Source: an uncultured Enterobacteriaceae bacterium
GTDB lineage: Bacteria > Pseudomonadota > Gammaproteobacteria > Burkholderiales > SG8-39
Assembly (NCBI GenBank): GCA_964393745.1
Contig: CAYMVA010000013.1
Coordinates: forward strand, 46,250 to 110,249
Reading direction: 5' to 3'
Length of the DNA: 64,000 nucleotides
Numbering within the stretch: position 1 is the first letter of the stretch; each line of letters opens with the position of its first letter. A program made the position numbers and the translations under genes. Shown here in pieces: positions 24,650-51,043 of this stretch. The notes under the pieces were generated by a model. That model saw nothing but the letters and a program-made list of their open reading frames with translations, did not search any database and had not been told where the DNA came from.

Positions 24650-27094
24650 GTGAGTAAATGGGTCACCGGATTTCGGCTTGCTTTAGCCGCGCTGCTCTTT
24701 GTGCCGCTGCTCGCGCATGCCGCCGGACTGGGCAGGCTGACGGTGCAGTCCGCCTTGGGCCAGCCGCTCGCGGCCGAGATCGAGATCGTCTCGCTGCAAC
24801 CGGGCGAGGACGATAGCCTGAATGCGCGGCTCGCTTCGCAGGAAGCGTTCCGCCAGGCTGGAATCGAGATGAGTTCCGCGCTCATAGGCGTGCGCTTCGC
24901 AATCGAGCGCCGCGCCGGGCGGCCAGTGATCCGCGTCAGCACCCTGCAGGCGGTGAACGAGCCGTTTCTCGATCTGCTGGTGGAATTGCAATGGGCTACT
25001 GGCCGGCTGGTGCGGGAATACACGTTCCTGCTCGACCCGCCCGAGTACAAGGGACCGCAGCCGATCGCGGCGGCGCCCGCGCCCGCGGCGAAACCGGCGC
25101 CCGCAGTTGAGGCGGTGAAGCCGGCGCCAAGCGTCGAAGCGAGACCGATTACGCCTGCGCCGTCGGCAGCGGCGCCGGCTGGCTCGTACGAAGTGAAAAA
25201 GGGCGACACCCTCGGCGCGATCGCGCGGGACAACCGGCCGGCTGGCGTCACCTTCAACCAGATGCTGATCGCGCTGTACCGCGCGAACCAATCGGCATTC
25301 ATCCGTGAAAACATCAACCTGGTTCGCGCCGGGCGCATCCTGACGATTCCGGACCGCAGCGCCATCGAGGCCGTGGATGTGGCGGAGGCCAACCGCCTAG
25401 TGCAAACGCATCACGCGGAATTCGCCGAGTACCGGCGGCAGCTCGGCATGGCGGTTGCGGCAGCGCCGGCGGCGCCAGCGCCGCGCGAGCGCGAGGTCGC
25501 TGGCCGCATCACCGCCAAGCCCGGCGCGCCTGCGCCGGCTGAGTCGAAGGACCAGCTGAAACTGTCTCGCGCCGACGTTGCCCCCGCGACTGCGGCCGGG
25601 CGTGCTGCGCGCGAAGACGACCGCATCGCGCGAGAGCGGGCGCTGAAGGATGCGCAGTCGCGCGCCACCGATCTGGAAAAGAACGTCACCGACCTGCAAA
25701 AGCTGGTGGAGCTGAAAAACCAGCAACTGGCGGAACTCGAGAAGAAGGCGGGAGCCAAGCCCGCTCCAGAGGCGCCCAAGCCTGCTCCAGAAGCACCCAA
25801 GCCCGCGGCAGAGGCGCCCAAGCCGGCGCCGGAAGCAGCCAAGGCACCGGAGGCAGCGAAGCCTGCGGCTGAAGCGCCGAAGCCGGCTGTCGCAGCGGCC
25901 AAGCCCAAGCCGAGGCCTGCGGCACCTCCGCCGCCGCCTCCGCCAAGCTTGGTGGACGAGTTCCTCGACAACCCGGTCGCTCTGGGCGGGCTCGGCGGCG
26001 TGGTGGTGCTGCTGGCTGGCTACGGCATCTGGGCATGGCGGCGCCGGAAAGGGTCGGCGACCAAGTTCCAGGACAGCGTGCTCACCGGCCAGGGCGCCGG
26101 ACCTGCCGCAGGCGCCGCAGTTGGCCCTGTTGCAGCCGCCGGTGCCGCCGCGACCTCGGTAGCCTCGGTCAGCCAGACTGCCGTCGGCGGGGGGAGCGAA
26201 GAAGTCGATCCGATCGCCGAGGCGGACGTTTACATGGCGTACGGGCGCGATGCCCAGGCCGAGGAAATCCTGAAAGAGGCCCTAGCCAAGGACGCCAATC
26301 GCGTGCCGGTGCACGTAAAGCTGCTCGAGATCTACGCCAACCGGCGCGACAAGCGGGGCTTCGAGCAGACCGCGCTCAAGGTGAAGAACCTGACCCATGG
26401 CACCGGGCCGGAGTGGGAGAAGGCTGCCGCTCTGGGCCGCACCGTCGATCCCGGCAGCGGTCTGTATGGCGGGGCGCCCGACGCCACACAGGCGATCGCG
26501 CCAAAGGCGATCGCACAGAGCGCCGCTGCGCCTACGATCGACATCGACATCACGGGCGGCGGACTGGCGCGCACCGCGACGGCGCCGGCGAGCACCGCGG
26601 CAGGGCTCGATTTCGACCTCGGCGCGACCACGCCCGGGATGCCCAAGCCGAAGAGCGATTTCACGGCCGAAGGCACGCTCATCATGGACAGGCCGTCGGG
26701 TTCCGCCGAAGTGCCGGCGCTCGACTTCAATCTGGGCGATACCACCACCCTCAAGACCGACACACTGCCGACTAGAGCCGCCTCGCCGTCCGCCGGTAGC
26801 GGCTCGATCGACTTCGACCTGAACATCGATCTGGGCGGCGCGCAACCGGCACTGGCTGCGGATGCGCCCCTCGACCTCGGTGCGCTGAACCTCGATCTGG
26901 GCGCGCCCGCGGGCGGCGGGCCGGCGGCGTCCGATCCCAAGTGGCAGGAGGTGGCGACCAAGCTCGACCTCGCCAAGGCCTACGAAGAGATGGGCGACAA
27001 GGATGGCGCGCGCGAGTTGCTCAACGAAGTGCTCAGGGAAGGCGACGCCGCGCAGAAGGGTCAGGCCAAGCAGATGCTCTCCAACCTGCGCTAG
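24650..27094 (+). CDS. fimV: FimV-like peptidoglycan-binding protein (FimV N-domain, LysM, coiled coil, TM, FimV C-terminal TPR-like motif)
   Basis: LGRLTVQSALGQPL.AEIEI...LLDPPEY, LysM (YEVKKGDTLGAIAR), and a C-terminal KLDLAKAYEEMGDKDGARELLNEVL. asd-fimV-truA synteny. GTG 24650 after AGGGTGG is preferred; ATG 24602 is possible. Confidence 0.85.
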   Translation: MSKWVTGFRLALAALLFVPLLAHAAGLGRLTVQSALGQPLAAEIEIVSLQPGEDDSLNARLASQEAFRQAGIEMSSALIGVRFAIERRAGRPVIRVSTLQAVNEPFLDLLVELQWATGRLVREYTFLLDPPEYKGPQPIAAAPAPAAKPAPAVEAVKPAPSVEARPITPAPSAAAPAGSYEVKKGDTLGAIARDNRPAGVTFNQMLIALYRANQSAFIRENINLVRAGRILTIPDRSAIEAVDVAEANRLVQTHHAEFAEYRRQLGMAVAAAPAAPAPREREVAGRITAKPGAPAPAESKDQLKLSRADVAPATAAGRAAREDDRIARERALKDAQSRATDLEKNVTDLQKLVELKNQQLAELEKKAGAKPAPEAPKPAPEAPKPAAEAPKPAPEAAKAPEAAKPAAEAPKPAVAAAKPKPRPAAPPPPPPPSLVDEFLDNPVALGGLGGVVVLLAGYGIWAWRRRKGSATKFQDSVLTGQGAGPAAGAAVGPVAAAGAAATSVASVSQTAVGGGSEEVDPIAEADVYMAYGRDAQAEEILKEALAKDANRVPVHVKLLEIYANRRDKRGFEQTALKVKNLTHGTGPEWEKAAALGRTVDPGSGLYGGAPDATQAIAPKAIAQSAAAPTIDIDITGGGLARTATAPASTAAGLDFDLGATTPGMPKPKSDFTAEGTLIMDRPSGSAEVPALDFNLGDTTTLKTDTLPTRAASPSAGSGSIDFDLNIDLGGAQPALAADAPLDLGALNLDLGAPAGGGPAASDPKWQEVATKLDLAKAYEEMGDKDGARELLNEVLREGDAAQKGQAKQMLSNLR
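25755..25910 (+). repeat. In-frame ~15-nt tandem repeats encoding (A/P)KPAPEA units inside fimV
   Basis: Direct reading: APKPAPEAPKPAPEAPKPAAEAPKPAPEAAKAPEAAKPAAEAPKPA. Confidence 0.8.
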
Positions 27095-31467: not shown

Positions 31468-32747
31468 GCGGGCGCACGCTCGGCGCGTGGCTAGACCACG
31501 TCGAGCGCCAGCACCCCAAGGAAATCGCCCTCGGGCTGGAGCGCGTCGGCGAAGTGCTGGCGCGCCTGGGCGTGTCGCCGGCTTGCCCGGTGATCACCGT
31601 CGGCGGCACCAATGGCAAAGGCTCCGCCTGCGCGATGCTGGAGAGCATCCTGCGTGCGGCCGGCTATCGCGCCGGGCTCTACAGCTCGCCGCACCTGCTG
31701 CGCTACAACGAGCGCGTGCGCATCGCCGGGCGCGAGGCCGACGATGCGGCGCTGTGCGAGGCCTTTCAAGCGGTGGAGAGTGCGCGCGGCCAGGTGCCAC
31801 TCACCTATTTCGAGTTCGGCACCCTCGCCGCGGCGTGGCTGTTCGCGCGCGAGCGCCTCGACGCGCTGGTGCTGGAGGTCGGCCTCGGTGGGCGGCTCGA
31901 CGCAGTGAACGCGATCGAGCCCGACTGCGCGCTGCTCACCAGCGTGGGCGTGGACCATGTTGGGTACCTTGGCGCCACGCGCGAAGAAATCGGCCGCGAG
32001 AAGGCGGGCATCTTCCGCGCCGGCAAGCCGGCGGTGGTCGCCGAGCCCGAGCCGCCCGCGAGCGTTCTCGAGGAAGCGGCGAGGGTCGGCGCGAAGTTGC
32101 TGCTGGTGGGGCGCGACTTCGGCTTTCGCGCCGAAGCCGGGCAGTGGTCCTGCTGGGGACCGGGCGGCAAGCGCGCCGGGCTGGCGTATCCGGCACTGCG
32201 CGGCGCCATCCAGTTGCGCAACGCGAGCGCCGTGATCGTCGCGCTGGATGCGCTGCGCGAGCGCCTTCCAGTGGGCATGCAGGAAGTGCGGCGCGGGCTG
32301 GCCGAGGTGAACCTGCCGGGCCGCTTCCAGGTATTGCCGGGCCGGCCTCAGGTCGTGCTCGACGTCGCGCACAACCCGCAAGCGGCGGCGGTGCTGGCGG
32401 CGAACCTGCAGGCGAGCGGCTTTGCGCCGCAAACTATCGCGGTGCTGGGCATGCTGGCGGACAAGGACATCGGTGGCGTGGTGAGTGCGGTCGCGCCGCG
32501 CATCACGCGTTGGCACCTTGCGACGCTGGGCGGATCGCGCGGCGCGAGCGCGCACCAGCTTGCGGCGGCGCTTGTGGCGTGCGGCGTGAGCGCGCCGGCG
32601 ACCGAGCACGCCTCCGTCGCGCGAGCGCTTGCTGCAGCGCAGGGTGAAGCAGGTGAGGGTGATAAAATCATCGTCTTTGGATCATTCCTCACGGTAGCCG
32701 AAGCGATGGCTCAACTCCAGGCGCAACGACGCCCCGGGCATGGCTGA
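31464..32747 (+). CDS. folC: Bifunctional folylpolyglutamate synthase / dihydrofolate synthase
   Basis: GTG overlaps the accD stop. [10 protein letters not shown]-loop-like motif. accD-folC synteny. Confidence 0.9.
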
Positions 32748-33420
32748 AGCGCGCGACGTCGAAGCGCTCAAGCGCCGCGGCCGGCGCCGGCTCGTGGGCG
32801 CGATCGCGCTGGTGCTCGCTGCGGTCATCGTCCTGCCGATGGTGTTCGACTCGGCGCCGAAACAGGCTCCGCCGCCGGTGAGCGTTCGCATTCCCTCCGA
32901 GGACGACGCCGGATTCAAGCCGAAGGTCACGCCGACTGTGCCTGCGCAGCCGCCCGTGGCAGCCAAGCCGGCGGCACCCGCTCCCGCGCCAGTCGCGCCG
33001 GAGAAAGCGGAAACTAAGGCGTCAGAGGTTGCGCCTGCGAAGCCCGCCGCGCCCGAGCCTGCCAAGCCGATCGTGAAGCGGGCGCCCGAAAAGCCCGCCG
33101 CGCCCGAGCCCGCCAAGCCGATCGTGAAGCCGGCGCCCGAAAAGCCCGCCGCGGCGGCTGAGGAAAAAGCGCGCGCCCAAAGCGCGCTCGCGGGCGAGCA
33201 GTATTACGTCCAGGTGGGCGCGTTCGCCGAACCCAGCGGCGTGCTCGAGAAGCTCAAGGCGGCGAAGATTCCCTACTACACCGAGCCGGTCGCCACCAAG
33301 GCGGGCAAGGTGTTGCGCGTGCGCGCGGGCCCGTTTGCGAGCCGCGAAGCGGCACAGAAGGCCCTGGAGCAGCTCAAAGGCCTGGGCTTAAAGCCGGCCG
33401 ACGTCGCGGCCAAGTCCTAG
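32740..33420 (+). CDS. SPOR-domain cell-division protein (DedD-like)
   Basis: N-terminal TM, a Pro/Ala/Lys-rich linker, and a C-terminal SPOR domain (YYVQVGAF...RVRAGPFASREAA). The stop TAG (33418-33420) is partly supplied by the adjacent repeat element. Confidence 0.85.
   Translation: MAEARDVEALKRRGRRRLVGAIALVLAAVIVLPMVFDSAPKQAPPPVSVRIPSEDDAGFKPKVTPTVPAQPPVAAKPAAPAPAPVAPEKAETKASEVAPAKPAAPEPAKPIVKRAPEKPAAPEPAKPIVKPAPEKPAAAAEEKARAQSALAGEQYYVQVGAFAEPSGVLEKLKAAKIPYYTEPVATKAGKVLRVRAGPFASREAAQKALEQLKGLGLKPADVAAKS
33040..33154 (+). repeat. 51-nt in-frame tandem duplication (about 2.2 copies) in the SPOR protein linker
   Basis: KPAAPEPAKPIVK(R/P)APE is repeated, and the DNA units are near-identical. 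Confidence 0.85.
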
Positions 33421-33846
33421 GGAAGCTCTGAGCAAGTTCCGCGTGCGCGACGGTGGCGATTTTCGTGCAGGGCGAGCCAGCGGACGCCGCCGTGTGCTTG
33501 ACGCCCACAAGGCGGCCGATGGCGATGGCATGCGCGAACGCGCAGGCGCTTGCGCCTGCGCTCCTCGCGCTTTAGCGCGACCGAGGGGCGCGCAGCGGCA
33601 AAGCCGCTGCTCAGCGCCCCGTCCCTTTGGGCGGCGAGGCCGGCCGCAAAGGTTCAAGGCAAAAGCCCTCGCCGCCCTCGGGTTGCGACCGGAAGTCGCG
33701 TAACCGGGGGTACGATAGCGCGATGACACGGGCGCCTGCGTTGTTGCTCGACCTTGCGATATCGACATATCGCTGCAGTCGAGCGCCTAGCAGGCGCCGC
33801 GTTCCGGCCGCAACGCGCATGCGCGCAACTTGCTCAGAGCTTCCCT
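33419..33846 (+). mobile_element. MITE-like structured intergenic element, copy 1 (428 bp, perfect 20-bp TIR AGGGAAGCTCTGAGCAAGTT)
   Basis: The termini are exact reverse complements. The interior is homologous to 41483-41839 (inverted). It has multiple nested GC hairpins and no credible ORF. Confidence 0.8.
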
Positions 33847-33847
33847 G

Positions 33848-34339
33848 ATGACCTGGCTCGATTACGCCGTGTTCGGCGTGTTCTCGTTTTCCGTCCTCTG
33901 GGGCGCATGGCGCGGATTGGTGCGCGAAGTCATCTCGGTGCTGGGCTGGGTGATCGCGTTCCTCGCCGCCAATCTGTTCGCGGGTCCGCTTGGCGAGGCG
34001 CTGCCGCTATCCATCCCGACCCCCGAACTGCGGGTGCTGGCGGCCTTCCTCGGCATTTTCGTAGGCGTGCTGATCGTCTCGACGCTGCTGGCGCTGCTCC
34101 TGTCCAGGCTGATACAGGCGGTGGGGCTTGGCGGACTCAATAGCCTGCTGGGAGGGTTGTTCGGCGTCGCCAGGGGCGTGCTGATCGTGCTGGCCGTGGC
34201 GTTGCTCGCCGGGCTGACGAGCGCCCCGAAACAGGCGTTCTGGCGCGACTCCGCGGCCGGCGCGGGCATGGCGCGCGCCGCGCTCGCGCTCAAGCCGTGG
34301 CTGCCGCATACGCTTACCGAGCGGCTGCGCTATGATTGA
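33848..34339 (+). CDS. cvpA: Colicin V production / membrane integrity protein CvpA
   Basis: MTWLDYAVFGVFSFSVLWGAWRGLVREV.S resembles the E. coli CvpA N-terminus. dedD-cvpA-purF synteny. Confidence 0.88.
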   Translation: MTWLDYAVFGVFSFSVLWGAWRGLVREVISVLGWVIAFLAANLFAGPLGEALPLSIPTPELRVLAAFLGIFVGVLIVSTLLALLLSRLIQAVGLGGLNSLLGGLFGVARGVLIVLAVALLAGLTSAPKQAFWRDSAAGAGMARAALALKPWLPHTLTERLRYD

Positions 34340-36019: not shown

Positions 36020-37189
36020 ATGAAAAATTCGCTTGCCACGCTGGGGGTGCGCGCCGGACAGGCCCGCACCGAGTTCCACGAGCACTCCGAGGCGCTGTTC
36101 CTCACCTCGAGCTTCGTGTTCGACAACGCCGCGCAGGCCGCGGCGCGCTTCACCGGCGGCGAGGACGGCTTCGTCTACTCGCGCTTCACCAATCCCACGG
36201 TCGCCATGTTCCAGGACCGGCTCGCGGCGCTGGAAGGGGCGGAGGCCTGCGTCGCCACCGCCTCGGGGATGTCGGCGATCCTCGCCGTGAACATGGCGCT
36301 GCTCAAGTCGGGCGACCATGTGGTTTGTTCGAATGCCGTGTTCGGCGCCACGGTGCAGCTGTATTCAGGGATCCTGGCGCGCTTCGGCATCCAGACCACG
36401 TTCGTTTCCCCGACCGAGATTGGCGACTGGCAGCGGGCGCTGAAACCGAACACCCGGCTGCTTTTTCTGGAGACGCCGTCCAATCCGCTTGGCGTGGTCT
36501 CTGACATCGCGGCGATCGCCGCCGTGGCGAAGAATGCTGGCGCGCTGCTCGCGGTGGACAACGCGCTGTGCACCCCGGCGCTGCAGCGGCCGCTCGAATT
36601 CGGCGCCGACCTGGTGATCCATTCCGCGACCAAGTACCTGGACGGGCAGGGCAGGGTGCTCGGCGGCGCGGTGCTCGGCTCCAAGGCGCTGGTGATGGAC
36701 GGCGTGTTCGGCTTCCTGCGCACTGCGGGGCCGACGCTGTCGGCGTTCAACGCCTGGGTGATCCTGAAGGGCATGGAGACCCTCGAACTCCGCATGTTGG
36801 CGCAATCGGAGCGCGCGCTGGAGTTGGCGCGCTGGCTGGAGGCGCATCCCAAGGTAGCGCGCGTGTTCTATCCCGGCCTGGCATCGCACCCGCAGCACGC
36901 GCTCGCCATGCGCCAGCAGCGCGCCGGCGGCGCGATCGTGTCGTTCGAGGTGCAGGGCGGGCGCGAGGCGGCGTGGAAAGTGGTCGACTCGACGCAACTG
37001 ATCTCGATCACCGGCAACCTCGGCGACGTCAAGACCACCATCACCCATCCGGCCACCACCACCCACGGGCGCATCACGCCCGAGGCGCGCGCCGCGGCCG
37101 GGATTGGCGATGGTCTGCTGCGCGTCGCGGTCGGCCTGGAAGCGGTCGAGGACGTGAAAGCCGACTTGGCGCGGGGGCTGGGCGAATAG
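36020..37189 (+). CDS. metZ: O-succinylhomoserine sulfhydrylase (Cys/Met PLP-dependent family)
   Basis: SRFTNPTV...HSATKYLDGQGR (PLP Lys). ATG 36020 follows AAGGATGGGG; ATG 36011 is an alternative. Confidence 0.88.
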   Translation: MKNSLATLGVRAGQARTEFHEHSEALFLTSSFVFDNAAQAAARFTGGEDGFVYSRFTNPTVAMFQDRLAALEGAEACVATASGMSAILAVNMALLKSGDHVVCSNAVFGATVQLYSGILARFGIQTTFVSPTEIGDWQRALKPNTRLLFLETPSNPLGVVSDIAAIAAVAKNAGALLAVDNALCTPALQRPLEFGADLVIHSATKYLDGQGRVLGGAVLGSKALVMDGVFGFLRTAGPTLSAFNAWVILKGMETLELRMLAQSERALELARWLEAHPKVARVFYPGLASHPQHALAMRQQRAGGAIVSFEVQGGREAAWKVVDSTQLISITGNLGDVKTTITHPATTTHGRITPEARAAAGIGDGLLRVAVGLEAVEDVKADLARGLGE

Positions 37190-37250
37190 AGCCGGGCTGG
37201 AAGGGCCGAAGTGTAAAGTCACGCTTTACACTCTGCCGCGGCGCGCCTGA
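37174..37250 (+). repeat. Copy A of the triplicated metZ-stop/hairpin region
   Basis: GGGCTGGGCGAATAG-AGCCGGGCTGGAAGGGCCGAAGTGTAAAG-TCACG-CTTTACACT. It carries the authentic metZ 3' end and is homologous to 39127-39216 and 40686-40776. Confidence 0.85.
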
Positions 37251-37336
37251 ATTCGCTCGCGAACTCAGGCGCAAAGAAATCGGGCACCGTTTGCAGCGAC
37301 AGGCTCTAAATCAAACTGCTGCTAAAACGGGACTCA

Positions 37337-37375
37337 CGTCGGCTGCGCTGGGTCGTCAGTTCGCGGGCCAATAAG
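37337..37375 (+). pseudogene. Possible 3'-terminal remnant of a paralog of the 40216-40671 lipoprotein gene
   Basis: Encodes ..SAALGRQFAGQ*, compared with ..AAALGRQFAGR* at 40637-40671. About three-quarters nucleotide identity by eye over ~35 nt, with no upstream coding continuity. Confidence 0.35.
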
Positions 37376-37382
37376 AACCGAT

Positions 37383-39014
37383 TTATGCGGCGCCCCTGAG
37401 CCACGTCACCCGTACGCGGTCGTAATCCTGGTCGCGCTCGATCAGCTCTTCGAACCGCACCTGCGTCATCTGCTCGCCCATCATGACTTCGTATTTGAGG
37501 CCGGGGACGAAGCCCTCGCGCTCCAGAAGGATCTCGTGAGGCGTGCCGGAGGCGGCGCTCTCGGCCAGGATCAGCGCGTTCACGAAAGTGAACTTGAACG
37601 ACCCGGAGGAGGTCCGCCAGTTCTCGGCACTCTCAGCACCCTCGCCGAGGCCGCGCAGGTACACCGAAACCGGCTTCTTGGCGAGGATTTCGATTTCGGC
37701 GCGCATGCGCTCCTGCAGGTCGCGTTGCAGGCGCCGGATCGTGCCCAACCACCATGACTTTTGCCCCGCCACCTGGAACACGCATAGCGCGCCGATTTTC
37801 GCCCAGGGCTCGTCCTGGCGCGGGATGTCCACGCCGATTCCCCATGTGCTGCCCTCGTGCTGCATCCATTCGGTGATCACGGCGGTCACCTCCTGGGCCT
37901 GGAGCGCGATGCCGGTCTGCTTTTTCACCTCCAGGCGCTGGTCTTCCGTCATCTCCGCCATGCCGCTGAACTCGATGCGGGTCACCAGCTCGGACGCTGC
38001 GGAGAATCCGTGCGAGACCTTTATTTTTGCCTCGATCTTCACGCGCGGCCCGCGCGGTTCGGGCGGGGAGTCGCCCCAGTAGAGCAGCAGGCGCTTGAGC
38101 ACGAGCAGCTTCTCCGGGATCGTGAAATCGTCTCCGAAGCGCTTTTCCGGCTCCTGCGGGTTGGCGGTGTGGCGGTCTATCACTTCCTGGATCGAGGCGC
38201 CGGCGTCGCCGGCTCCGAAGCAGCGCAGAGTGGCGCTCTGCGCGACCTCCGGCGAGTGACGGATCGGCCGGTTCGGATGGGCGAGATCGATACAGAAGTT
38301 GCACCTCTCCCCGGGCTTCGCCTTGAGAGCGAAGCCGGAAGCCGTCCGCGAGATGATTCGCGCCGAGAGCTCCACCTCGAGCATCCGCTCGGCGTCCGGG
38401 TTGGCCGCGTCCATCATCGGCAGTCGCAGGAATTCCTGGCGCGCATGGCTGTGGAAGGCGTCGCTCGCGTAGGCCTTGATGCGTTCTGCGACGAACCTTT
38501 CCTTTTCGGCCTGGCCGTAGAGCACCGCGAGCTCCTGCCAGATGCGCGGCTTCACCGGCAGGTAGCGGAATTGGAGGAGCTTGCCTTCGTTGGTGAGGGC
38601 GCGGAGTGCGCGCAAAGCCAGGAGCGTGCGCTCCGGATGCACGGCCTCGCCCGGCTTCGCCGCCTGGGCGATCTCCCGGAGGCAGACGCGGTAGGCGGAA
38701 GAAACATGCTCCCAGAACCCGACCAGCGCCTGCCAGAGTTGGAACCGCTCGATCTCCTTGAGCTTGTCGTTGCGCAGGAATTCGGACAGCGCGGCGGCTT
38801 CCCGCTTCTGCCCCGTCTCATCGAGCAGCTTGATCACCCCGATCCGGTCGGAGAGGCCAAATCCGGGGGTCGCGGCGACCGTCTCGAGCGAGGAGGACAC
38901 TTCCTCCACGGCCTTGCCGTGCGCGGCAGGCAGGTCGGCGAGCAACCTGCCCGCCTCCTCGACGTTGTACATCGGATGGTCGGCCTTCTTGCTGCCGCTC
39001 AACCATTCAAGCAT
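37383..39014 (-). CDS. Hypothetical 543-aa cytoplasmic protein (island cargo 1)
   Basis: Long ORF with good codon periodicity and no signal peptide or TM. The N-terminal two-thirds are helical. The C-terminal ~150 aa look like a beta-barrel with a GSTWGIGV-type motif. No family confidently recognised. Confidence 0.7.
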   Translation of the reverse strand: MLEWLSGSKKADHPMYNVEEAGRLLADLPAAHGKAVEEVSSSLETVAATPGFGLSDRIGVIKLLDETGQKREAAALSEFLRNDKLKEIERFQLWQALVGFWEHVSSAYRVCLREIAQAAKPGEAVHPERTLLALRALRALTNEGKLLQFRYLPVKPRIWQELAVLYGQAEKERFVAERIKAYASDAFHSHARQEFLRLPMMDAANPDAERMLEVELSARIISRTASGFALKAKPGERCNFCIDLAHPNRPIRHSPEVAQSATLRCFGAGDAGASIQEVIDRHTANPQEPEKRFGDDFTIPEKLLVLKRLLLYWGDSPPEPRGPRVKIEAKIKVSHGFSAASELVTRIEFSGMAEMTEDQRLEVKKQTGIALQAQEVTAVITEWMQHEGSTWGIGVDIPRQDEPWAKIGALCVFQVAGQKSWWLGTIRRLQRDLQERMRAEIEILAKKPVSVYLRGLGEGAESAENWRTSSGSFKFTFVNALILAESAASGTPHEILLEREGFVPGLKYEVMMGEQMTQVRFEELIERDQDYDRVRVTWLRGAA

Positions 39015-39126
39015 GGCAGGCCCTCCTCGTGGAGCGCCGCCGGCGGCGAATCACCGCAGCGTGATCCACAGGTTACTATGATCGCTGGGTGTCTGGAGCG
39101 AGCGGCGAGCCAGCTTGAGGAACTTT

Positions 39127-39216
39127 CGCTGCGCAGGTAACGCACGGGCTGGCAGGGCAAAAGTGTAAAGTCTGTCTTTACACTTCGCCGAACTGCACCA
39201 GTCGCACCGCAGCGCA
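39127..39216 (+). repeat. Copy B of the triplicated region (degenerate metZ end + hairpin + degenerate lpxH 3' end)
   Basis: CTGCGCAGGTAA..CGGGCTGGCAGGGCAAAAGTGTAAAG-TCTGT-CTTTACACTTCGCCGAACTGCACCAGTCGCACC. The reverse strand reads a pseudo VQFGEV* identical to the lpxH C-terminus. Confidence 0.85.
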
Positions 39217-39362
39217 GCAACCCGGGCGAGCACCGTGTCACGATTCGGTAAGGGCATATTGCACGAATCGCTCGCACCGCCAGTCGATTTCAGCAGACTG
39301 TCTTAAGTTGTCGCGTTTCGGTCTATTATCATTGCGTCAGTGATCTCGAAAGGGAGGTTGCC

Positions 39363-40178
39363 ATGAAACGTCTATTGAGTGTGCTCCTGGTTCTGTTAGG
39401 ACTGGCCGCGTTCCCGGGGCTTATCTATGCAGATCATTCGTGGGGCGCCTATCATTGGGCGCGTACTGGCGGCTCATTCACCTTGAAGCTCGGTGACAAC
39501 GTGTCGAGCGCGTGGGATCCGTACCTCATTGAGGCGTCGAACGATTGGAGCGCCTCTAGCGTGCTTAACACCGTAATCGATACGGGCTTGACTACGCCAA
39601 AGAGGTGCAGGCCCAGCAGCGGGCGCGTGGAAGTTTGCGCTACCACCTATGGCAAAAACGGATGGCTGGGGTTGGCTTCGATCTGGGCGAGCGGGAGCCA
39701 CATCACGCAGGGCACTGCCAAGATGAACGACTCGTACTTCAACACCGCGCCGTACAACACCCCAGCATGGAGACGGCTGGTGATGTGTCAGGAGATCGCC
39801 CACACCTTCGGCCTCGATCACCAGGACGAGAATTTCTCCAACCTGAACTTTGGCAGTTGCATGGACTACACGTCCAACCCGGTCGGCCCGCCCAGCAACG
39901 AGCATCCAAACCAGCATGACTACGATCAACTGGTGACGATTTACGGCGGCCATACCGACACCACCACCACGGCCACCCAGACCAGCGCACAGGGCGCGAT
40001 GCCCCCGGCGATGTCCGACATCGACTTCGAGGGGCCGGGCCAATGGGGCAAGCTCCTCCGTTCGACCAACCGCGGCCGGACCGAGGTGTATGAACTCGAT
40101 TTCGGCGGCGGGCACAAGGTCTTCACCTTCGTCATCTGGGCGGACGAAGAAGACCGCGGACGCGGCAATCGACACTGA
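39363..40178 (+). CDS. Secreted metzincin-like protein with a variant motif QEIAHTFGLDH (island cargo 2)
   Basis: Strong RBS AAGGGAGG and signal peptide MKRLLSVLLVLLGLAAFPGLIYA. The ExxHxxGxxH core has Gln where the first Zn-binding His is expected. AT-richer codons (cta, tta, ttg, agt). Confidence 0.75.
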   Translation: MKRLLSVLLVLLGLAAFPGLIYADHSWGAYHWARTGGSFTLKLGDNVSSAWDPYLIEASNDWSASSVLNTVIDTGLTTPKRCRPSSGRVEVCATTYGKNGWLGLASIWASGSHITQGTAKMNDSYFNTAPYNTPAWRRLVMCQEIAHTFGLDHQDENFSNLNFGSCMDYTSNPVGPPSNEHPNQHDYDQLVTIYGGHTDTTTTATQTSAQGAMPPAMSDIDFEGPGQWGKLLRSTNRGRTEVYELDFGGGHKVFTFVIWADEEDRGRGNRH

Positions 40179-40215
40179 TTGCGCGCGGGCCTCGGGCGCG
40201 TCGTGAGGCCATGGA

Positions 40216-40671
40216 ATGCGGCTGCTTGCAGTCCGCTTGGCTGTGGTCGCAGCGGCTGGTGCCGTTAGCTGCACCTCGAGCGCATCGGGATTAGACCAGC
40301 CTCGGCAGGGTGAGTCGCGCCCAAGCCGCGTGACCGGCTACGCAAGTCTCGCGGCCTACTTGCGTGCCGCGGGCGCAAGCGTCAAGCCGGGAGGGGAAGT
40401 CGATCAGCCATTCTTCCCCGTCACCGGAAAGATGCTCCAAGTCCACGGCGAGGATGTGCAGGTCTTCGAGTTCGCAGCTGCCGCAGTGGCGGATGCGCAG
40501 GCCGCCCGGATCTCGCCGACTGGCGGCACGGTAGGGACGACGAACGTCCATTGGATCGGCTCGCCGCATTTTTACAAGGCGGGAAAACTCCTCGTGCTGT
40601 ACGTGGGAGACAACGACAAGGTGCTGCAAGCACTCGCCGCCGCGCTCGGCCGGCAGTTCGCCGGCAGGTAG
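40216..40671 (+). CDS. Small lipoprotein of unknown function (island cargo 2)
   Basis: Lipobox AAGAVSC. 151 aa. Conserved-looking C-terminal half (VQVFEF...ISP.GG.VGTT.V.W...PHFYK.G.L.VLYVG.ND). Confidence 0.65.
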   Translation: MRLLAVRLAVVAAAGAVSCTSSASGLDQPRQGESRPSRVTGYASLAAYLRAAGASVKPGGEVDQPFFPVTGKMLQVHGEDVQVFEFAAAAVADAQAARISPTGGTVGTTNVHWIGSPHFYKAGKLLVLYVGDNDKVLQALAAALGRQFAGR

Positions 40672-40685
40672 CTGACCTCGGTCTA

Positions 40686-40776
40686 GGGCTGCGCGGGTAG
40701 ACCCGGGCTGGCAGGGCCAAAGTGTAAAGTCAGACTTTACACTTCGCCGAATTGCACCATGCGCACCACGTCGCGC
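40686..40776 (+). repeat. Copy C of the triplicated region (degenerate metZ end + hairpin + authentic lpxH 3' end)
   Basis: GGGCTGCGCGGGTAG-ACCCGGGCTGGCAGGGCCAAAGTGTAAAG-TCAGA-CTTTACACTTCGCCGAATTGCACC. The lpxH stop codon lies in the hairpin arm. Confidence 0.85.
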
Positions 40777-41480
40777 TCGACCGCGAGGTAGCCGCCGCGA
40801 TCGTACCAGTCCGGCAGCACCCAGCGCTCGCAGGCTTTGCCGTCCACCCTGTGCTGGTGGTGCGCCGGGCGGTGGGTGTGGCCGTGGATGAGGCGCGTCA
40901 CGCCCAGCCTGCGGAACGCCTCGCACACCGCGCCCACGTTGGCGTCCATGATCTCGGGCGCTTTGGCGCGTACCGCGGCCTTGCTCTGCTCGCGGTAGCC
41001 GAGCACCGCGACGCGGCGCTGGTCGCGCGGCTTGGCGAGGAACTCCTGCTGCCAGGCCGCCGAGCGGGCGATGTGGCGCCATGCCTGGTAAGGCAAATCG
41101 TCGGTGCACAGCGTGTCGCCGTGCAGCAGCGCGAAGCGCTCGCCATCCAGCTCGGCGACGGCGGGATCGTCGAGCAGCTGCGCGCCGGCGGCGGCGCAAA
41201 AGCGCTCGCCGATGAGGAAGTCGCGGTTGCCGTGCATCAGGCGCAGCGCAACGCCGGCCTCGGAGAGCTGCCGCAGCCCTTGCGCCACTTGCCGCCCAAG
41301 CGGGTCGCCGGGAACGTCCTCCAGTTCGTCGTCGCCGATCCAGTATTCGAACAGGTCGCCCAGGATGTAGAGCGCCTGCGCGTCGCGCGCCTCGTGGCGC
41401 AGGAAACGGATGAACTGCTCGCTGGCCTGCGGGCGCTCCCCTGAAAGGTGCAGGTCGGAGATGAACAGCGCCCGGCTCAC
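40737..41480 (-). CDS. lpxH: UDP-2,3-diacylglucosamine diphosphatase
   Basis: SDLHL...LYILGDLFE.WIGDD...HGNRDFL...HGDTLCTDD...IHGHTHRP metallophosphoesterase motifs match LpxH. GTG start at 41480. Confidence 0.92.
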   Translation of the reverse strand: MSRALFISDLHLSGERPQASEQFIRFLRHEARDAQALYILGDLFEYWIGDDELEDVPGDPLGRQVAQGLRQLSEAGVALRLMHGNRDFLIGERFCAAAGAQLLDDPAVAELDGERFALLHGDTLCTDDLPYQAWRHIARSAAWQQEFLAKPRDQRRVAVLGYREQSKAAVRAKAPEIMDANVGAVCEAFRRLGVTRLIHGHTHRPAHHQHRVDGKACERWVLPDWYDRGGYLAVERDVVRMVQFGEV

Positions 41481-41482
41481 CC

Positions 41483-41839
41483 AGGGACCCTCTGATCAAT
41501 TCACGCGCATGCGCGTTGCGGCCGGAACGCGGCGCCTGCTAGGCGCGAGGCCGCAGCGATATGTCGATATCGCAAGGCCGAGCAACAACGCAGGCGCCCG
41601 TGTAGCCGCGATGACCGTCGCCCGAGATACCGACTTCCGGCCGCAACCCGGGGGCGGCGAGGGCCTCTGTCTTGCACTCCTGCGGCACGGCCTCGCCGCC
41701 CAGAGGGACGGGGCGAGTTTTCGCGCATGGCATCGCCATCGGCCGCCTTGTGGACGTCAAGTACACGGCGGCGTCCGCTGGCTCGCCCTGCACGAAAATC
41801 GCCGCCGTCGCGCACGCGGGAATTGATCAGAGGGTCCCT
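41483..41839 (-). mobile_element. MITE-like structured intergenic element, copy 2 (357 bp, perfect 20-bp TIR AGGGACCCTCTGATCAATTC)
   Basis: Inverted homolog of 33419-33846. It fills the ppiA-stop to lpxH-start spacer, leaving 2 nt on each side. Confidence 0.8.
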
Positions 41840-41841
41840 AG

Positions 41842-42423
41842 TTACTTGGCGTCGACCACGCTCATGGATTCGATCACTACCGCCTCGCGCGGCACGTCGC
41901 TGCGGAACGGGCCGCCCGCGCCGGTCGGCATTTTGGCGATCTTCGTCACCACGTCCATCCCCGATACCACTTTGCCGAACACCGCGTAGCCCCAGCCGTC
42001 CTGCGCCGCGGCGGCGTTCAGGAAATCGTTGTTCTTGCCGTTGATGAAGAACTGCGCGCTCGCCGAGTGCGGCGCGCTGGTGCGCGCCATGGCGACGGTG
42101 CCGAGGTCGTTCTTGAGGCCGTTCTTGGCCTCGTTCTCGACCGGCGGGCGCGTCGGCTTCTGGTTGAACTTCGGGTCGAAGCCGCCGCCCTGGATCATGA
42201 AGCCGTCGATGACGCGATGGAACACGGTGCCGCTGTAATGGCCGTCCTTCACGTACTGCAGAAAGTTGTCGACGGTTTTCGGCGCTTTGGCCGGATAGAG
42301 CTCCAGCCGGATGGTGCCGGCATTGGTTTTCACGTCCACCTGCGGATCGGCGGCCGCCGCGCCGGGCGCGGCCGCGGCCGCGGAAAGCACTACCAGGGAC
42401 TTGCAGAAATCAGCGAGCTTCAT
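41842..42423 (-). CDS. ppiA: Periplasmic cyclophilin-type peptidyl-prolyl cis-trans isomerase
   Basis: Signal peptide plus FHRVIDGFMIQGGGF...WGYAVFGKV cyclophilin motifs. Confidence 0.92.
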   Translation of the reverse strand: MKLADFCKSLVVLSAAAAAPGAAAADPQVDVKTNAGTIRLELYPAKAPKTVDNFLQYVKDGHYSGTVFHRVIDGFMIQGGGFDPKFNQKPTRPPVENEAKNGLKNDLGTVAMARTSAPHSASAQFFINGKNNDFLNAAAAQDGWGYAVFGKVVSGMDVVTKIAKMPTGAGGPFRSDVPREAVVIESMSVVDAK

Positions 42424-44695: not shown

Positions 44696-44730
44696 CTTGG
44701 AGTGCATCTGCGCAGAATGTGTCGTAGGGA

Positions 44731-47103
44731 TTATGCGAGGCTTGCGAGGATCTGCTTCGCCTGCGCCTGCTGCGCAGCATCGCCTTCCTGGAGGACCTCG
44801 TTCAGGAGTTCCCGGGCGCCGTCGTTGTCGCCCATCTCCTGGTAGGCAATGGCAACGTCGAGTTTGACCGCGACGTCCTGCCATTTCTTGTCGCGACCGC
44901 CCGCACTCTTGGCAGCGGACTTGACCTCGTCCAGATCCAAGCTGATCGTGGAAAGATCCATTTCGCTCGCCGAGGGTGCCGCGGCTTTCGTCACCACGGG
45001 CGTCTCGCCCGTCGTTCCGCCGAGGTCGAAGTCCAGTATCGAATCGGCCGACGCCGGCGCCGCTGCAGGCGCCGGGGACTGCCTTGGGGCGGGTTCCATC
45101 ATCGTGTCGAGATCGAAGTCGACTTTGGGCAACTCGGCCGAGTCGGCTGCAGCCGCCACTTCGGCGCCTTCACCCTGACCGTACAGCGCATTGCGCGGGT
45201 CGATCGACCGGCCAAGCGCCAGCGCCTTGTCCCACTCCGGCCCTTCGCTGTTCACCAGACCCTTCAGCTTGCGTGCCTCGGCTTCGAACTTCTGCGTCTC
45301 TTGCCGCTTGGCGTAAATCTGAAGCAGTTTGAGGTAAACGACTGGCCGGGCCTCGCCCTCCTGGAGCGCCTTGCGCAGGATTTCCTCGGCCTGTCCGTCG
45401 CGTCCGTAGGCCATGTAAACATCCGCCTCCGCAAGCGGGTCGATCTCTTCGGCGGCCGCCGCAGCGGCGGCGCTTCTCATGTCGACCGCTGCGGCAACGC
45501 CCGGGTCCGACACGGTCGCCACTGGCATGGCCGGCGGCCTGGCGCCGAGCTGCGCGAGCGCCGCGCGCTTCTTCTGCCGCCACGCATAAGCCCCGTATCC
45601 GGCGAGCAACAGCAGCACCACTCCGAGCCCACCTAGCATGACCGGGTCTTCGAGGTACTCCTCGAGCAGGCTCCGCTCCGGCGCGGGCGGCGGCGGTGCC
45701 GGTCGCGGCTTTGCCGCCGGCTTCGGTCCAGGCGCGGGCTTGGGAGCCTCAACTGCGGGCCTGGGGGTCTCAATTGCGGGCTTGGGCGCTTCGACCGCGG
45801 GTTTCGCGACCGGCGCCACCGCCGGCGCGGGCGGCGTTTCTGCAGCGCGCCTTTCCAGCGCGGCAATCTGCAGATTCCTGATCTCGACCAGCTTCGCGAG
45901 ATCCGCGGCGCTCTTCTCGAGTTCATTGATACGAGATTGCACGTCCTTCATGGCGCGCGCGTGCGCCTCGCGATCGTCAGCGCTCGCCGCAGCCGCAACC
46001 TCCGGCTTTCTGGCTTCGGCGCCCGCGAGCTTCACGCGCGCCTTTGGAGCGGCAGGCGCTGCTGGGTCGCCCTGCGACCTGATCCTCCCCTCCGCGATAC
46101 GCCTGCCCTCGCTGCGGGGTGGGGGCGGCGCAGTGGGCTGGGCAACGGGTGGGGCGACGGGCGGAGCAGCCGAAGGCGGCGGTGCCGCAGCCGCCGGCGC
46201 CGTCGGGGCCATCACTGCGACGGCGGGTGCACGCGGGACATCGGTCGGTGGGTCGAGCAGGACGGTGTATTCGCGCACCAGGCGCCCGGATTTCGACTCC
46301 AGCTCGATCAGTATCTTGAGGAACGGCTCGTTCACCGGACGGTCCGTCGTCACTGCGATGAACGGTTTGCCGTCGCGCCGCTGAATCGACATGTTGACGC
46401 CGTTCAGCGCGGCAATGAATTCGATTCCAGCCTGCCGGTAGGCGTCGGGCGAGGCGAGGCGCACCGCCAGAATCCCCTGCTCGCCGGGCTTAAGCGCCCC
46501 GACCTCGACTTCAGCTCGCAAGGGCTGGCCGAGCGAGGACCGCACGTGAAGAGTTCCCAGGGCCGTGGAAACGCCGGATTCTGCGGCAGGCGCGGTTGGA
46601 ACCGCCGCGCCGGCATCTGGCGCAACTGAATCGACCCGTTCTTCGACGATCAGCCAGCGTTCCCCATCCCGGATGAATTCAAGCGTCTTGTTGGTCTCGT
46701 CCTGATACCTGTCCGAGCGGTAGCGCTGGCGAAAGGATGCCGCAGCCCTGGCGTCGTCGCGCCGCAGAACCTTGAGGTCGCTGGTGGATACCTCGATGAA
46801 GCGCGGCGCCGTGATACGCGCGAGGCGCTGCTTCTCCCATGCGGCGCGCGCCTGGCCGCCAGGCGGCTTGAACGCCGGCGCGTAGAAGGCGAGGTAGCGC
46901 TCCGCATCCTTTGCCGACCACGCCTGCGCCCACGCAGCGACGCTCTCCAGAATCGCAGCGTCCGGGGCCGTGTGTGTCGCGGCCGCTGCCGTCGATGGCG
47001 CCCCCAGCCACAGCGCGCACAGCGCCGCGGCAACGCCTGGCTTCAATGCGCGCGGCAGCGCGGCGAAAAAGTGCTGTGCTAGACTTTTTATGCTTTTGGG
47101 CAC
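44731..47103 (-). CDS. Second FimV-like protein (paralog; N-terminal accessory module instead of LysM)
   Basis: FimV N-domain (LGTLHVRSSLGQPLRAEVEV...LLDPPT), coiled coil, TM, and FimV C-motif (KLDVAIAYQEMGDNDGARELLNEVL). The N-terminus has AWAQAWSAKDAERYLAFYAPAF... Confidence 0.8.
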   Translation of the reverse strand: MPKSIKSLAQHFFAALPRALKPGVAAALCALWLGAPSTAAAATHTAPDAAILESVAAWAQAWSAKDAERYLAFYAPAFKPPGGQARAAWEKQRLARITAPRFIEVSTSDLKVLRRDDARAAASFRQRYRSDRYQDETNKTLEFIRDGERWLIVEERVDSVAPDAGAAVPTAPAAESGVSTALGTLHVRSSLGQPLRAEVEVGALKPGEQGILAVRLASPDAYRQAGIEFIAALNGVNMSIQRRDGKPFIAVTTDRPVNEPFLKILIELESKSGRLVREYTVLLDPPTDVPRAPAVAVMAPTAPAAAAPPPSAAPPVAPPVAQPTAPPPPRSEGRRIAEGRIRSQGDPAAPAAPKARVKLAGAEARKPEVAAAASADDREAHARAMKDVQSRINELEKSAADLAKLVEIRNLQIAALERRAAETPPAPAVAPVAKPAVEAPKPAIETPRPAVEAPKPAPGPKPAAKPRPAPPPPAPERSLLEEYLEDPVMLGGLGVVLLLLAGYGAYAWRQKKRAALAQLGARPPAMPVATVSDPGVAAAVDMRSAAAAAAAEEIDPLAEADVYMAYGRDGQAEEILRKALQEGEARPVVYLKLLQIYAKRQETQKFEAEARKLKGLVNSEGPEWDKALALGRSIDPRNALYGQGEGAEVAAAADSAELPKVDFDLDTMMEPAPRQSPAPAAAPASADSILDFDLGGTTGETPVVTKAAAPSASEMDLSTISLDLDEVKSAAKSAGGRDKKWQDVAVKLDVAIAYQEMGDNDGARELLNEVLQEGDAAQQAQAKQILASLA

Positions 47104-49834: not shown

Positions 49835-49921
49835 GCCTTCACCTGAGCGGGTTGTGGCGGACGCCCGGATTTTGGGTCCCGCCCCCCGAACGGTCAAGCG
49901 CGCAACTTGCGCAGGGCTTGC

Positions 49922-51043
49922 CTAGCCCTCGAAAAACTCGCGGACTTTGTCGAGCCAGCCCTTGGCGCGGGGGTTGTGGCGCGCCGCGTCCTTCTGGCTG
50001 AGGGTCTCGAATTCGTGCAGCAGCTCGCGCTGGCGGGCGGTCAGGTTGACCGGCGTTTCCACAACCACGTGGCAGAACAGGTCCCCCGGCGCGTGGCTGC
50101 GCACGCCCTTGATGCCCTTGCCGCGCAGGCGGAAGGTCTTGCCGCTCTGCGTCTCGGCCGGCACCTTGATACGCGCGCTGCCATCGAGAGTGGGGATCTC
50201 GATGTCGCCGCCGAGCGCCGCGGCCGAGAACGACACCGGCATCTCGCAGTGCAAGTCGTCGTGGTCGCGCTGGAACACGGCGTGCGGCTTGATATGCGCC
50301 TGCACGTACAGGTCTCCCGGCGGGCCGCCGTTGACGCCGGCCTCGCCTTCGCCGGTGAGCCGCACCCGGTCGCCCTCGTCGATGCCTGTGGGGATGCGCA
50401 CCGATAGCGTCTTCTGGTGCTTGACGCGGCCGGCGCCGCCGCACGCGGCACAGGGGTGCGCCACCATCTTGCCGCTGCCGTGGCAGCGCGGGCAGGTCTG
50501 CGCGATCGAGAACGGGCCCTGCGACACCCTGACCTGTCCCGCGCCGCGGCAGGTGGTGCAGGTTTGCGGCTGGGTGCCGGGCTTGGCGCCGCTGCCGTGG
50601 CAGGTGTCGCAGGCGGCTAGCGTCGGGATGCGGATCTTGGTCTCGAAGCCGTGCGCCGCCTGCTCGAGTGTGATTTCGAGGTTGTAGCGTAGGTCAGCGC
50701 CCCGAAACACGTTGGAGCGCCCGCCGCGCCCGCCGCCGAAGATCTCGCCGAAGATGTCGCCGAAGATGTCGCCGAAGCCGCCGCCCGCGCCGGCGCCCGC
50801 GCCCGCGGCCGCAGAGGGATCGACCCCGGCGTGGCCGAACTGGTCGTAGGCCTGGCGCTTCGGCGCCTCCGACAGGATCTCGTAGGCCTCTTTCGCCTCC
50901 TTGAACCGCTCCTCGGACTTGGGATTGTCCGGATTGCGGTCCGGATGCCACTTCATGGCGAGCTTGCGGTACGCCTTCTTGATGTCCTCGTCGGAGGCGT
51001 CCCGGTTGACTCCCAGCACCTCGTAGAAATCACGCTTCGCCAT
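49922..51043 (-). CDS. dnaJ: Chaperone DnaJ
   Basis: J-domain HPD, a G/F region and four CxxCxGxG zinc-finger repeats. Confidence 0.96.

Follow-up and report, generated by a model that had tools for sequence, protein, structure and literature searches.

Small intergenic elements that fold into hairpins are among the nearest described counterparts of the element analyzed here, a non-coding repeat that occurs twice in the window (the whole 64,000-nt stretch of contig CAYMVA010000013.1). Correia elements (NEMIS) of Neisseria and ERIC elements of enterobacteria are small and intergenic, are bounded by terminal inverted repeats (TIRs), and are co-transcribed as long RNA hairpins with RNase- or orientation-related effects (PMC10969869). 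They are simple hairpins of ~100-200 bp, much shorter than the present element, and they have no sequence similarity to the present family, which is known here from sequence alone. To our knowledge, concerted change of the two ends has not been reported for either of them. REPINs, the REP doublets mobilized by RAYT, are likewise non-autonomous, hairpin-forming, and multicopy, and they carry compensatory changes (PMC3116915). In REPINs, however, the terminal REP 16-mers are conserved and the spacer is variable or compensated, which is the reverse of the present arrangement; they also lack a target duplication and use a Y1/HUH enzyme, whereas the present element has TA flanks and IS5-like ends. 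An assignment to the REPIN/RAYT elements was rejected on these grounds, with the ends being the variable part here and a TA duplication being present; no search for a RAYT gene was made. Finally, the Chunjie MITE (miniature inverted-repeat transposable element) of Geobacter uraniireducens is reported to sit inside an operon without abolishing it and has a highly stable predicted RNA fold (PMC3184786, PMC10969869). It differs in its 9-bp direct repeats, 21-bp TIRs, A+T-rich composition, length of 178-235 bp, and parent family, and it was rejected as the closest analogue because of the 9-bp repeats.

The family found here is ordinary in kind but has two well-supported population features, namely concerted ends and an orientation bias at start codons. 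We propose, with a probability of about 0.72, that the element is a non-autonomous MITE derived from, or mobilized by, a DDE transposase of the IS5 group. The 19-bp TIR, the TA duplication together with empty sites, the small size, the many copies, and the lack of coding capacity all argue for a MITE. Among eukaryotes, the Tourist and mPing MITEs of PIF/Harbinger, relatives of IS5, are also non-autonomous derivatives of the IS5 superfamily with a target centered on T(N)A; unlike the present MITE, they have a 3-bp TAA/TTA duplication and no operon context.

Copy 2 (41483-41839, minus strand, 357 bp, AGGGACCCTCTGATCAATTC...GAATTGATCAGAGGGTCCCT) fills the spacer from the ppiA stop to the lpxH GTG, leaving 2 nt to the ppiA TAA (41842-41844) and 2 nt to the lpxH GTG (41480-41478). 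Copy 1 (33419-33847, plus strand, 429 bp) starts inside the TAG of a SPOR-domain gene and ends directly before the cvpA ATG. The two align in long identical blocks with a mean column identity of 85% and a single 72-nt indel. Each is bounded by a perfect 19-20-bp TIR; their 20-nt ends differ from one another at five positions, and all five differences are mirrored at the opposite end of the same copy. The end motif is present at only four places in the window (0.74 expected), which are the ends of both copies, and the orientation relative to transcription is identical for the two. The original prediction had described these coordinates, the anatomy and homology of the copies, the five mirrored differences, and the common orientation, and each of these was reproduced when the copies and their 20-nt ends were aligned. 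The predicted folds of the copies (-228 and -269.7 kcal/mol; z of about -10.5 and -9.2 versus shuffled sequence) consist of three internal hairpins closed by a terminal helix.

To place the two copies in a family, one genome per species was scanned with the internal 18-mer GCGATATCGACATATCGC, which returned at least 101 loci. BLAST of both window copies against these loci gave 67 intervals and, with the window copies included, 55 distinct full-length elements, on which all family statistics for ends, orientation, and flanks were computed. The 18-mer matches at L055, L029, L052, L077, L008, and L091 are due to chance and are not copies of the element. Among the matches listed, at least 53 full-length copies lie beyond the window in at least five uncultured metagenome-assembled genomes (MAGs). 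One of them, MFD10007.bin.2.212 ('beta proteobacterium', CAVRDW01), harbors at least 44 copies (40 full-length) on contigs of 1.3 and 2.2 Mb; the others are MFD02242.bin.2.37, Burkholderiales SMAG_U682, Burkholderiales SMAG_U2685, and one labelled Enterobacteriaceae. Paralogous copies are ~82-88% identical and fall into size classes of 353-357 bp and 424-426 bp, with one variant of 386 bp; the 72-nt module that distinguishes the long form is present in 10 of the 55 copies and occurs with either end type.

A coding element was rejected. The two open reading frames (ORFs; 86 and 104 aa) have no Pfam match and are Arg-rich translations of G+C-rich DNA, the 353-357-nt length spread breaks every reading frame so that no ORF is conserved, and an ORF that links the element with the right-hand TAG is present in the 356-nt class only. 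No promoter or terminator motif was found inside the element. Likewise, no Rfam family matched the whole window or copy 1 at gathering thresholds (the best sub-threshold hit, sX7, scored 22.8 bits against 55), and BLAST of the element against plasmid and phage collections returned nothing similar. The family is apparently an undescribed repeat that is abundant in uncultured Burkholderiales from soil. It accounts for puzzling "spacers" of 360-430 bp within otherwise closely linked gene pairs, ppiA-lpxH among them, and gives rise to breaks in assemblies and to misannotated gene ends.

The link to IS5 comes from the ends. A 60-nt left-end query matched, at 23 of 25 bases (CTAGGGAAGCTCTGAACAAGTCCCG), the exact left terminus of an insertion sequence (IS) on Pseudomonas plasmid NZ_CP089552 (49.5-50.7 kb, ~1.17 kb), which reads CTAG-GGAATCTCCGAACAAGTCCCGG...CGGAGCATCC-CTAG with 20-nt inverted repeats. 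Its 326-aa product matches NF033581, "IS5 family transposase", at 357.7 bits and is 59% identical to the E. coli IS5 transposase. The left end of E. coli IS5 is GGAAGGTGCGAACAAGTCCC, and the block GAACAAGTCCC is common to the MITE, E. coli IS5, and seven metagenomic elements. A metagenome scan for the IS5 left end with the conserved transposase coding motif PYPLETM downstream returned seven further IS5-group loci with the same left end, GGGAAKCTCYGAACAAGTCCC; where both ends are readable, the right end is GGGATGCTCCGATCAACTTGC and the flanks are C-TA-G (C-TA-GGG...CCC-TA-G). The correspondence extends to individual positions: those invariant in the MITE arms (GGGA, CTCTGA, A16, and T18) correspond to the ones that the left and right ends of IS5-group elements have in common, and the variable MITE positions (5, 6, 13, 17, and 19) are those at which the two IS ends differ.

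Compared with the IS5-group ISs (E. coli IS5, ISKpn26, and the NZ_CP089552 element), in which the end is GGGAAKCTCYGAACAAGTCCC, the MITE has GGGAAGCTCTGAACAAGTCCC and shares their C-TA-G flanks and CTAG/YTAR target preference. It differs in being 355-426 bp long without a transposase gene and in an interior unrelated to theirs. Their ends are imperfect (14-15 of 19 positions match), whereas those of the MITE are perfect and covary. IS5 duplicates Py-T-A-Pu (YTAR), most often CTAG (PMC5009759, PMC5493358), and its duplication is conventionally given as 4 bp, in contrast to the MITE, for which it is best read as TA.

Movement of the element is evident from empty sites in relatives. Locus L053 (MFD10007) is a syntenic counterpart of the window, 75-81% identical in nucleotide sequence, and both window sites are empty there: the SPOR-cvpA junction reads TCCTGACATG, and the ppiA-lpxH junction consists of TAG, 10 nt, and GTG. 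This locus has its own copy of the element downstream of lpxH. Two further pairs show the same, L007 (empty; GACTGAC-TA-GAATGCGG, that is, GACTGAC-TA-GAATG) against L004 (filled) and L060 (empty; ...GCC-TA-GGGGCG) against L005 (filled). Because TA is present once in the empty sites and on both sides of the inserted element, the element is mobile and has moved recently, which agrees with the earlier view that this is not the simple decay of a dead MITE.

The typical copy reads C-TA-[GGG...CCC]-TA-G. In both window copies the right flank is TG where the family has TA, and this is the origin of the earlier "TCCCT-G-start" pattern; that pattern holds for the two copies on which it was based but is exceptional in the family as a whole. 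The outer flanking bases disagree in 14 copies, and the G and C adjoining the TA do not vary (54-55 of 55), which favors a duplication of TA (2 bp) over one of CTAG (4 bp). Such flanks raise the alternative of an IS630/Tc1-mariner-type MITE. IS630 targets CTAG and duplicates TA, and a TA on either side of a GGG...CCC core with variable outer bases, together with the invariant G and C beside it, would suit element-owned bases and a 2-bp duplication. This type was the first working hypothesis and was replaced after the end had matched an annotated IS5-family element. The ends, which were compared with those of the IS5 group, match IS5-group termini, including the GAACAAGTCCC block of E. coli IS5, and the TA/CTAG flanks do not discriminate, as IS5-group elements show the same ones; we regard an IS630-type origin as very unlikely.

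A CTAG target also explains the placement of the element from stop to start; neither this target nor the IS5-type family had been recognized in the original prediction. The window is 68% G+C and contains 32 CTAG against 187 expected from base composition, a six-fold depletion, and 14 of these are found at stop codons or in intergenic positions, though just 7% of the window is non-coding. From this scarcity and this concentration at TAG stops and intergenic positions, we infer that surviving insertions accumulate at gene ends. Since the element begins with G, the target TA plus this G restores TAG, and an upstream TAA or TAG stop is preserved, as at the SPOR gene. At the other end, a start codon follows 2-5 nt after the core in 16-17 copies (TAATG, TAGATG, TAGTG, or TGATG), and to judge from their sequence such tight right-end junctions appear to be former overlapping or abutting stop/start junctions. 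Three copies (L062 5004-5361, L039 2274-2628, and L022 3579-3936) lie between convergent genes, with both stops using the flanking TA; before the insertion, the two genes of each pair seem to have overlapped by one CTAG, a sequence that reads TAG on either strand.

Of the 17 copies next to a start codon, 6 have lost the right TA (to TG, CA, or GC), versus 2 of the 38 others (Fisher p=0.008, post-hoc). The losses include both window copies (41482-41483 and 33846-33847), L034, L030, L017, and L061, and the start-codon context may have been adapted after insertion.

The first population feature of the family is the agreement between the two ends of a copy. Over 19 nt, the arms are perfect in 33 of the 55 copies, with a mean of 0.53 mismatches. 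Two deeply separated end types dominate: 24 copies are of type A (GGGAAGC...) and 30 of type B (GGGAGCC...), and copy 2 represents a third variant (GGGACCC...); none of the 55 is a mixed A/B copy. The left arms form 25 haplotypes, many of them singletons with perfect arms. The terminal helix has 98.4% standard pairs, versus 83.5% when right arms are shuffled among copies (0 of 500 shuffles reach the observed value), and 15 of the 20 terminal pairs have changes on both sides. Its covariation score (0.387 vs 0.115) collapses when partners are slid by 1-3 columns. RNAalifold places nearly all covariation in this helix, and the interior stems hardly vary. The internal "compensatory A:T to G:C" change of the original prediction did not hold up accordingly: it is mostly G.U to A.U in stems that are otherwise almost invariant.

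The termini had also been described as more diverged than the interior. The arms do have the higher nucleotide diversity, 0.218 as against 0.085 for the interior (where long blocks show 0.01-0.06 and two loops 0.22-0.29), but the terminal excess is largely due to the two deep end types. This structure is what an ordinary decaying MITE family from two slightly different parents would predict, with covariation being nothing other than subfamily structure: types A and B hold much of the terminal diversity, and mixed A/B copies would be lost if each of two transposases required its own cognate ends. Within types, however, the arms of one copy still agree far better than those of different copies, with 0.58 versus 2.18 mismatches in type A and 0.50 versus 1.90 in type B (permutation p<5e-5). 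The 25 haplotypes with their many perfect-armed singletons and the recent movement seen at empty sites contradict decay as well, and this explanation is almost certainly incorrect. Random, uncompensated ends and random orientation, the pattern foreseen for a decaying family, are not what the copies display; their ends are compensated and their orientation is biased (29 vs 5).

The mismatches that remain are informative. A graded series exists within the GCGCAAG lineage at arm position 13, running from G/G through G/A to A/A (GCGCAAG/GCGCAAG, GCGCAAG/GCACAAG, and GCACAAG/GCACAAG). In one lineage an identical, uncompensated T.G mismatch recurs at four different loci, which shows that copies with a mismatch can still spread. 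Uncompensated mismatches comprise 14 G.U, 10 A.C, and 8 others, which indicates no strand preference, and both strands fold equally well (-229.8 forward and -228.2 kcal/mol reverse). Constant mismatches persist at arm position 20 and in several invariant interior G.U pairs, which makes a general hairpin-correcting process unlikely. Finally, end mismatches average 0.41 in operons, 0.69 in convergent, 0.5 in divergent, and 0.4 in reverse contexts; pairing that is equally good in all gene contexts is a property of the element and not of selection at each locus.

Overall, end matching points to a process in the element's own propagation that is limited to the terminal 19 bp. Either a single-stranded intermediate with paired ends would be needed or favored in transposition, or one end would be corrected against the other. 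REPINs, with their compensated arms, provide a precedent in a bacterial non-autonomous element (PMC3116915). Carried to its full extent, this idea becomes an alternative to IS5-type transposition, in which a single-stranded DNA intermediate requires the arms to pair, or one arm is resynthesized from the other (panhandle or template-switch correction), while the enzyme recognizes the interior hairpins instead of the arm sequence and the likeness to IS5 ends is ancestral, not functional. Covarying arms around a sequence-conserved interior would follow from it, as would the lack of mixed A/B ends and the intermediate series within lineages (GCGCAAG to GCACAAG). A Rhodocyclaceae family with quite different arms (GGGCCTGTTCTCA) and the same internal hairpin (CTTGCGATATCGACATATCGCTGC) fits too, and compensatory arm changes are known from REPINs (PMC3116915). 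Against it, the TA duplication and CTAG target are typical of DDE cut-and-paste elements, and the invariant arm positions are those conserved in the IS5 group, which suggests that a transposase reads the arm sequence. The T.G lineage at four loci speaks against a strict need for pairing, the persistent mismatches at arm position 20 and in interior G.U pairs against general hairpin correction, and the invariance of the shared internal 18-mer, which served as the search key, is given by construction. We consider this alternative unlikely.

The second population feature is orientation. Flanking genes were called with a codon-usage model trained on the long ORFs of the loci, which recovers the genes already known in the window. 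Where both neighbors are co-directional, 29 copies have the forward orientation, as in the window, and 5 are reversed (binomial p=3.9e-5; 25 vs 4 and p=1e-4 with strict gene scores); 13 copies are in convergent and 6 in divergent contexts. The bias is most evident at gene starts. Start codons abut the right end in 16-17 copies and the left end in at most one weakly supported candidate (coding score 18), and within 40 nt of the element there are 30 gene starts on the right but 2-3 on the left. The right-hand gene is the one that starts nearer the element in each of the six divergent contexts, whereas convergent contexts have no orientation preference (5 vs 4). The reverse orientation is thus almost never found directly upstream of a start codon.

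Replication direction was rejected as the cause of this bias, as orientation follows transcription and not local GC skew (12 leading, 7 lagging). Strand asymmetry was rejected as well: fold energy, G/C skew (overall and in loops), and the local C/G ratio are about equal on both strands. Promoter and terminator motifs, composition, loops, and ORFs were checked, and no asymmetric feature that explains the bias was found among them. The orientation bias, together with the right-flank changes at start codons, implies selection on downstream gene expression after insertion where a start abuts the element, as far as sequence can tell.

Selection of this kind could in principle extend to the ends themselves. 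The element would then be a functional RNA in operon transcripts, an RNase III site or a stop-start coupling device, with paired ends maintained by the host. The very stable predicted fold (z of about -10), the strong bias of orientation to transcription with starts abutting the right end, and the altered right flank beside start codons are consistent with such a role, for which Correia (RNase III) and ERIC (orientation-dependent RNase E) are precedents (reviewed in PMC10969869). However, the ends pair just as well where the context is convergent, divergent, or reverse; folding is no better on the forward than on the reverse strand, and G.U intermediates are not in excess over A.C (14 vs 10). 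Empty sites in relatives also show that the element is mobile, each of more than 50 independent loci would require a compensatory history of its own, and no Rfam family matches. A functional RNA selected by the host is therefore quite unlikely. Selection on end pairing, as originally put forward, stands as a pattern across the 55 copies and falls in its RNA or host-function form, since contexts and strands are equivalent.

Placement directly before a start codon nonetheless suggests how the element may be accommodated in the transcript. The right arm ends in ...GAGG(C/G)TCCC-TA, directly before the next start codon in tight junctions, where the sole possible Shine-Dalgarno is the GAGG of the right arm (type B and copy 2) or GAGC (type A, as in copy 1), 8 nt upstream. 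The sequence is compatible with a ribosome-binding site (RBS) supplied by the element, a possibility that is weaker for the type-A end (GAGC), as in copy 1. At lpxH, the GAGGG noted earlier is present 7 nt before the GTG, and the 19-23-bp terminal helix ends 2-3 nt from this GTG and encloses the motif. The start of lpxH is at the same position in the empty allele (L053), where the gene lacks an evident Shine-Dalgarno and begins 10 nt after the ppiA stop; it is thus probably translationally coupled to ppiA there. In the filled allele, a folded terminal helix would bury the downstream RBS and block initiation. A ribosome at the ppiA TAA, 2 nt before the left arm, would melt approximately the first 10 bp of the helix and thereby free the GAGG of the right arm and the start codon, so that coupling would survive a 357-nt insertion. 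The element could thus sit between translationally coupled genes. The family provides a natural data set for two questions, the part played by end pairing in MITE transposition and the effect of a ~350-nt insert on translational coupling.

Several points weigh against the IS5-type MITE as a sufficient account. The assignment rests on ~25 nt of end similarity and the target site, and the TA and CTAG duplications are not separable because the element itself ends in G...C. A related full-length IS, for which the original prediction had suggested a search, was found as far as the 23/25 left-end match (NZ_CP089552) extends, but loose and strict end-motif scans and tblastn with an IS5 transposase revealed no autonomous IS5-family partner with these ends, either within the window or across ~700 kb of loci from the MAGs. 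The metagenome scan for a partner returned only Pseudomonas-like relatives, and BLAST of the end sequence against E. coli genomes gave no match. Every copy was identified by way of a single exact internal 18-mer among at least 101 loci, which makes the sample biased and incomplete. Covariation does not follow from a DDE transposase binding double-stranded ends: such an enzyme does not predict ends that change through 25 haplotypes yet stay complementary, and here the standard MITE model falls short. Provided that types A and B each have a cognate enzyme of their own, it would explain why mixed A/B copies fail to spread, but it leaves unexplained the compensation at positions that the enzyme apparently does not read. 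MITEs do not usually have an interior that is better conserved than their ends, and this hints at a further function. Finally, unzipping by the ribosome, as modeled, could explain tolerance of the element but is symmetric and leaves the orientation bias unexplained.

These points leave room for a structure-specified mobile element, in which a paired stem of free sequence and a conserved multi-hairpin core are recognized in a single-stranded intermediate, and the core has been shaped to let the element lie, in one orientation only, between translationally coupled genes while leaving their coupling intact. If true, this would constitute a bacterial "operon-safe" transposon with concerted end evolution, not a passive passenger of IS5; we hold it to be rather unlikely. 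Coordinates of both copies and of the adjoining genes are listed in Table 1.

Table 1. Parts of the two element copies in the window and the genes on either side.
Feature	Position	Strand	Remarks
Copy 2 core, GGG...CCC, 355 bp, short form	41484..41838	-	82-88% identical to at least 50 Burkholderiales MAG copies
Copy 2 left arm, GGGACCCTCTGATCAATTC	41820..41838	-	Perfect complement of 41484-41502; forms the terminal helix of the predicted fold
Copy 2 right arm, GAATTGATCAGAGGGTCCC	41484..41502	-	Includes GAGGG 7 nt before the lpxH GTG
Copy 2 left flanking TA (C-TA)	41839..41840	-	ppiA TAA 1 nt upstream; TA flanks family-wide, duplication from empty sites
Copy 2 right flanking dinucleotide TG	41482..41483	-	Family norm is TA
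Copy 1 core, 426 bp, long form	33420..33845	+	
Copy 1 left arm, GGGAAGCTCTGAGCAAGTT	33420..33438	+	First G completes the SPOR gene TAG stop
Copy 1 right arm, AACTTGCTCAGAGCTTCCC	33827..33845	+	Followed by TG (33846-33847), then cvpA ATG (33848)
Extra ~72-nt hairpin module of long form	33540..33612	+	Boundaries good to ~3 nt
ppiA, cyclophilin-type PPIase, upstream of copy 2	41842..42423	-	Pfam PF00160, E=2e-47
LpxH-like metallophosphoesterase, downstream of copy 2	40737..41480	-	Pfam PF00149; GTG 3 nt after element core
SPOR-domain protein, upstream of copy 1	32740..33420	+	Pfam; stop TAG is target TA plus element G
cvpA (Colicin_V), downstream of copy 1	33848..34339	+	Pfam PF02674, E=7.5e-34

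Some members of the family depart from the typical form. The 386-388-bp variant at L038 (6272-6659) has an additional palindrome of 31 nt, CCCCGGGAAGGGACAGGGCCCCTTCCCCGTC, inserted in its second hairpin, and the label of its MAG, "uncultured Enterobacteriaceae", is at odds with its G+C-rich, Burkholderiales-like flanks. At L021 (4534-4784) a copy is internally deleted and lacks the first internal hairpin, and at L045 (6483-6506) a ~35-bp relic consists of two arms joined directly (CA-GGGAAGCGCTGCGCGAGTCGCGCGCAGCTTCCC-TA). A solo type-A right arm at L076 (5979-6003) shares its TA with a full type-B copy. In the window itself, CTAGGCAAGCCCTGCGCAAGTTGCGCG at a TAG stop (49895-49925, minus strand) resembles the type-A arm at ~23 of 27 bases by eye; with no second arm nearby, this stretch could be a relic or due to chance.

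One chromosomal site is occupied by copies of different size, 427 bp at L034 (95-521, one MAG) and 358 bp at L043 (3496-3853) and L010 (3744-4101) in two other MAGs. The upstream gene is the same in all three, and the right flank differs in L010. The size difference implies site reuse, conversion between copies, or an assembly chimera at the repeat. Outside the family, the Rhodocyclaceae MAG L.E.AP.42 (L059 266-541; L026, L083, and L085) harbors a MITE of ~270 bp, TA-GGGCCTGTTCTCA...TGAGAACAGGCCC-TA, which has ~60 nt of internal hairpin, including CTTGCGATATCGACATATCGCTGC, in common with the Burkholderiales family and little else.

Other repeats are also present in the window. A second repeat family comprises intergenic copies of ~70-105 nt (37159-37263, 39145-39215, and 40670-40774) that are 63-87% identical and contain the palindrome AAGTGTAAAGTC-nnn-GACTTTACACTT; they bracket a ~3.5-kb segment (37190-40736) that is absent from the syntenic L053. 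Finally, 24701-27094 (plus strand) and ~44700-46400 (minus strand) share several long inverted matches of 75-80% identity, which suggest a pair of diverged paralogues, oppositely oriented and separated by ~18-21 kb. Within one of these putative paralogues, 21-nt tandem repeats (25755-25898) encode PAPEAPK-like units.

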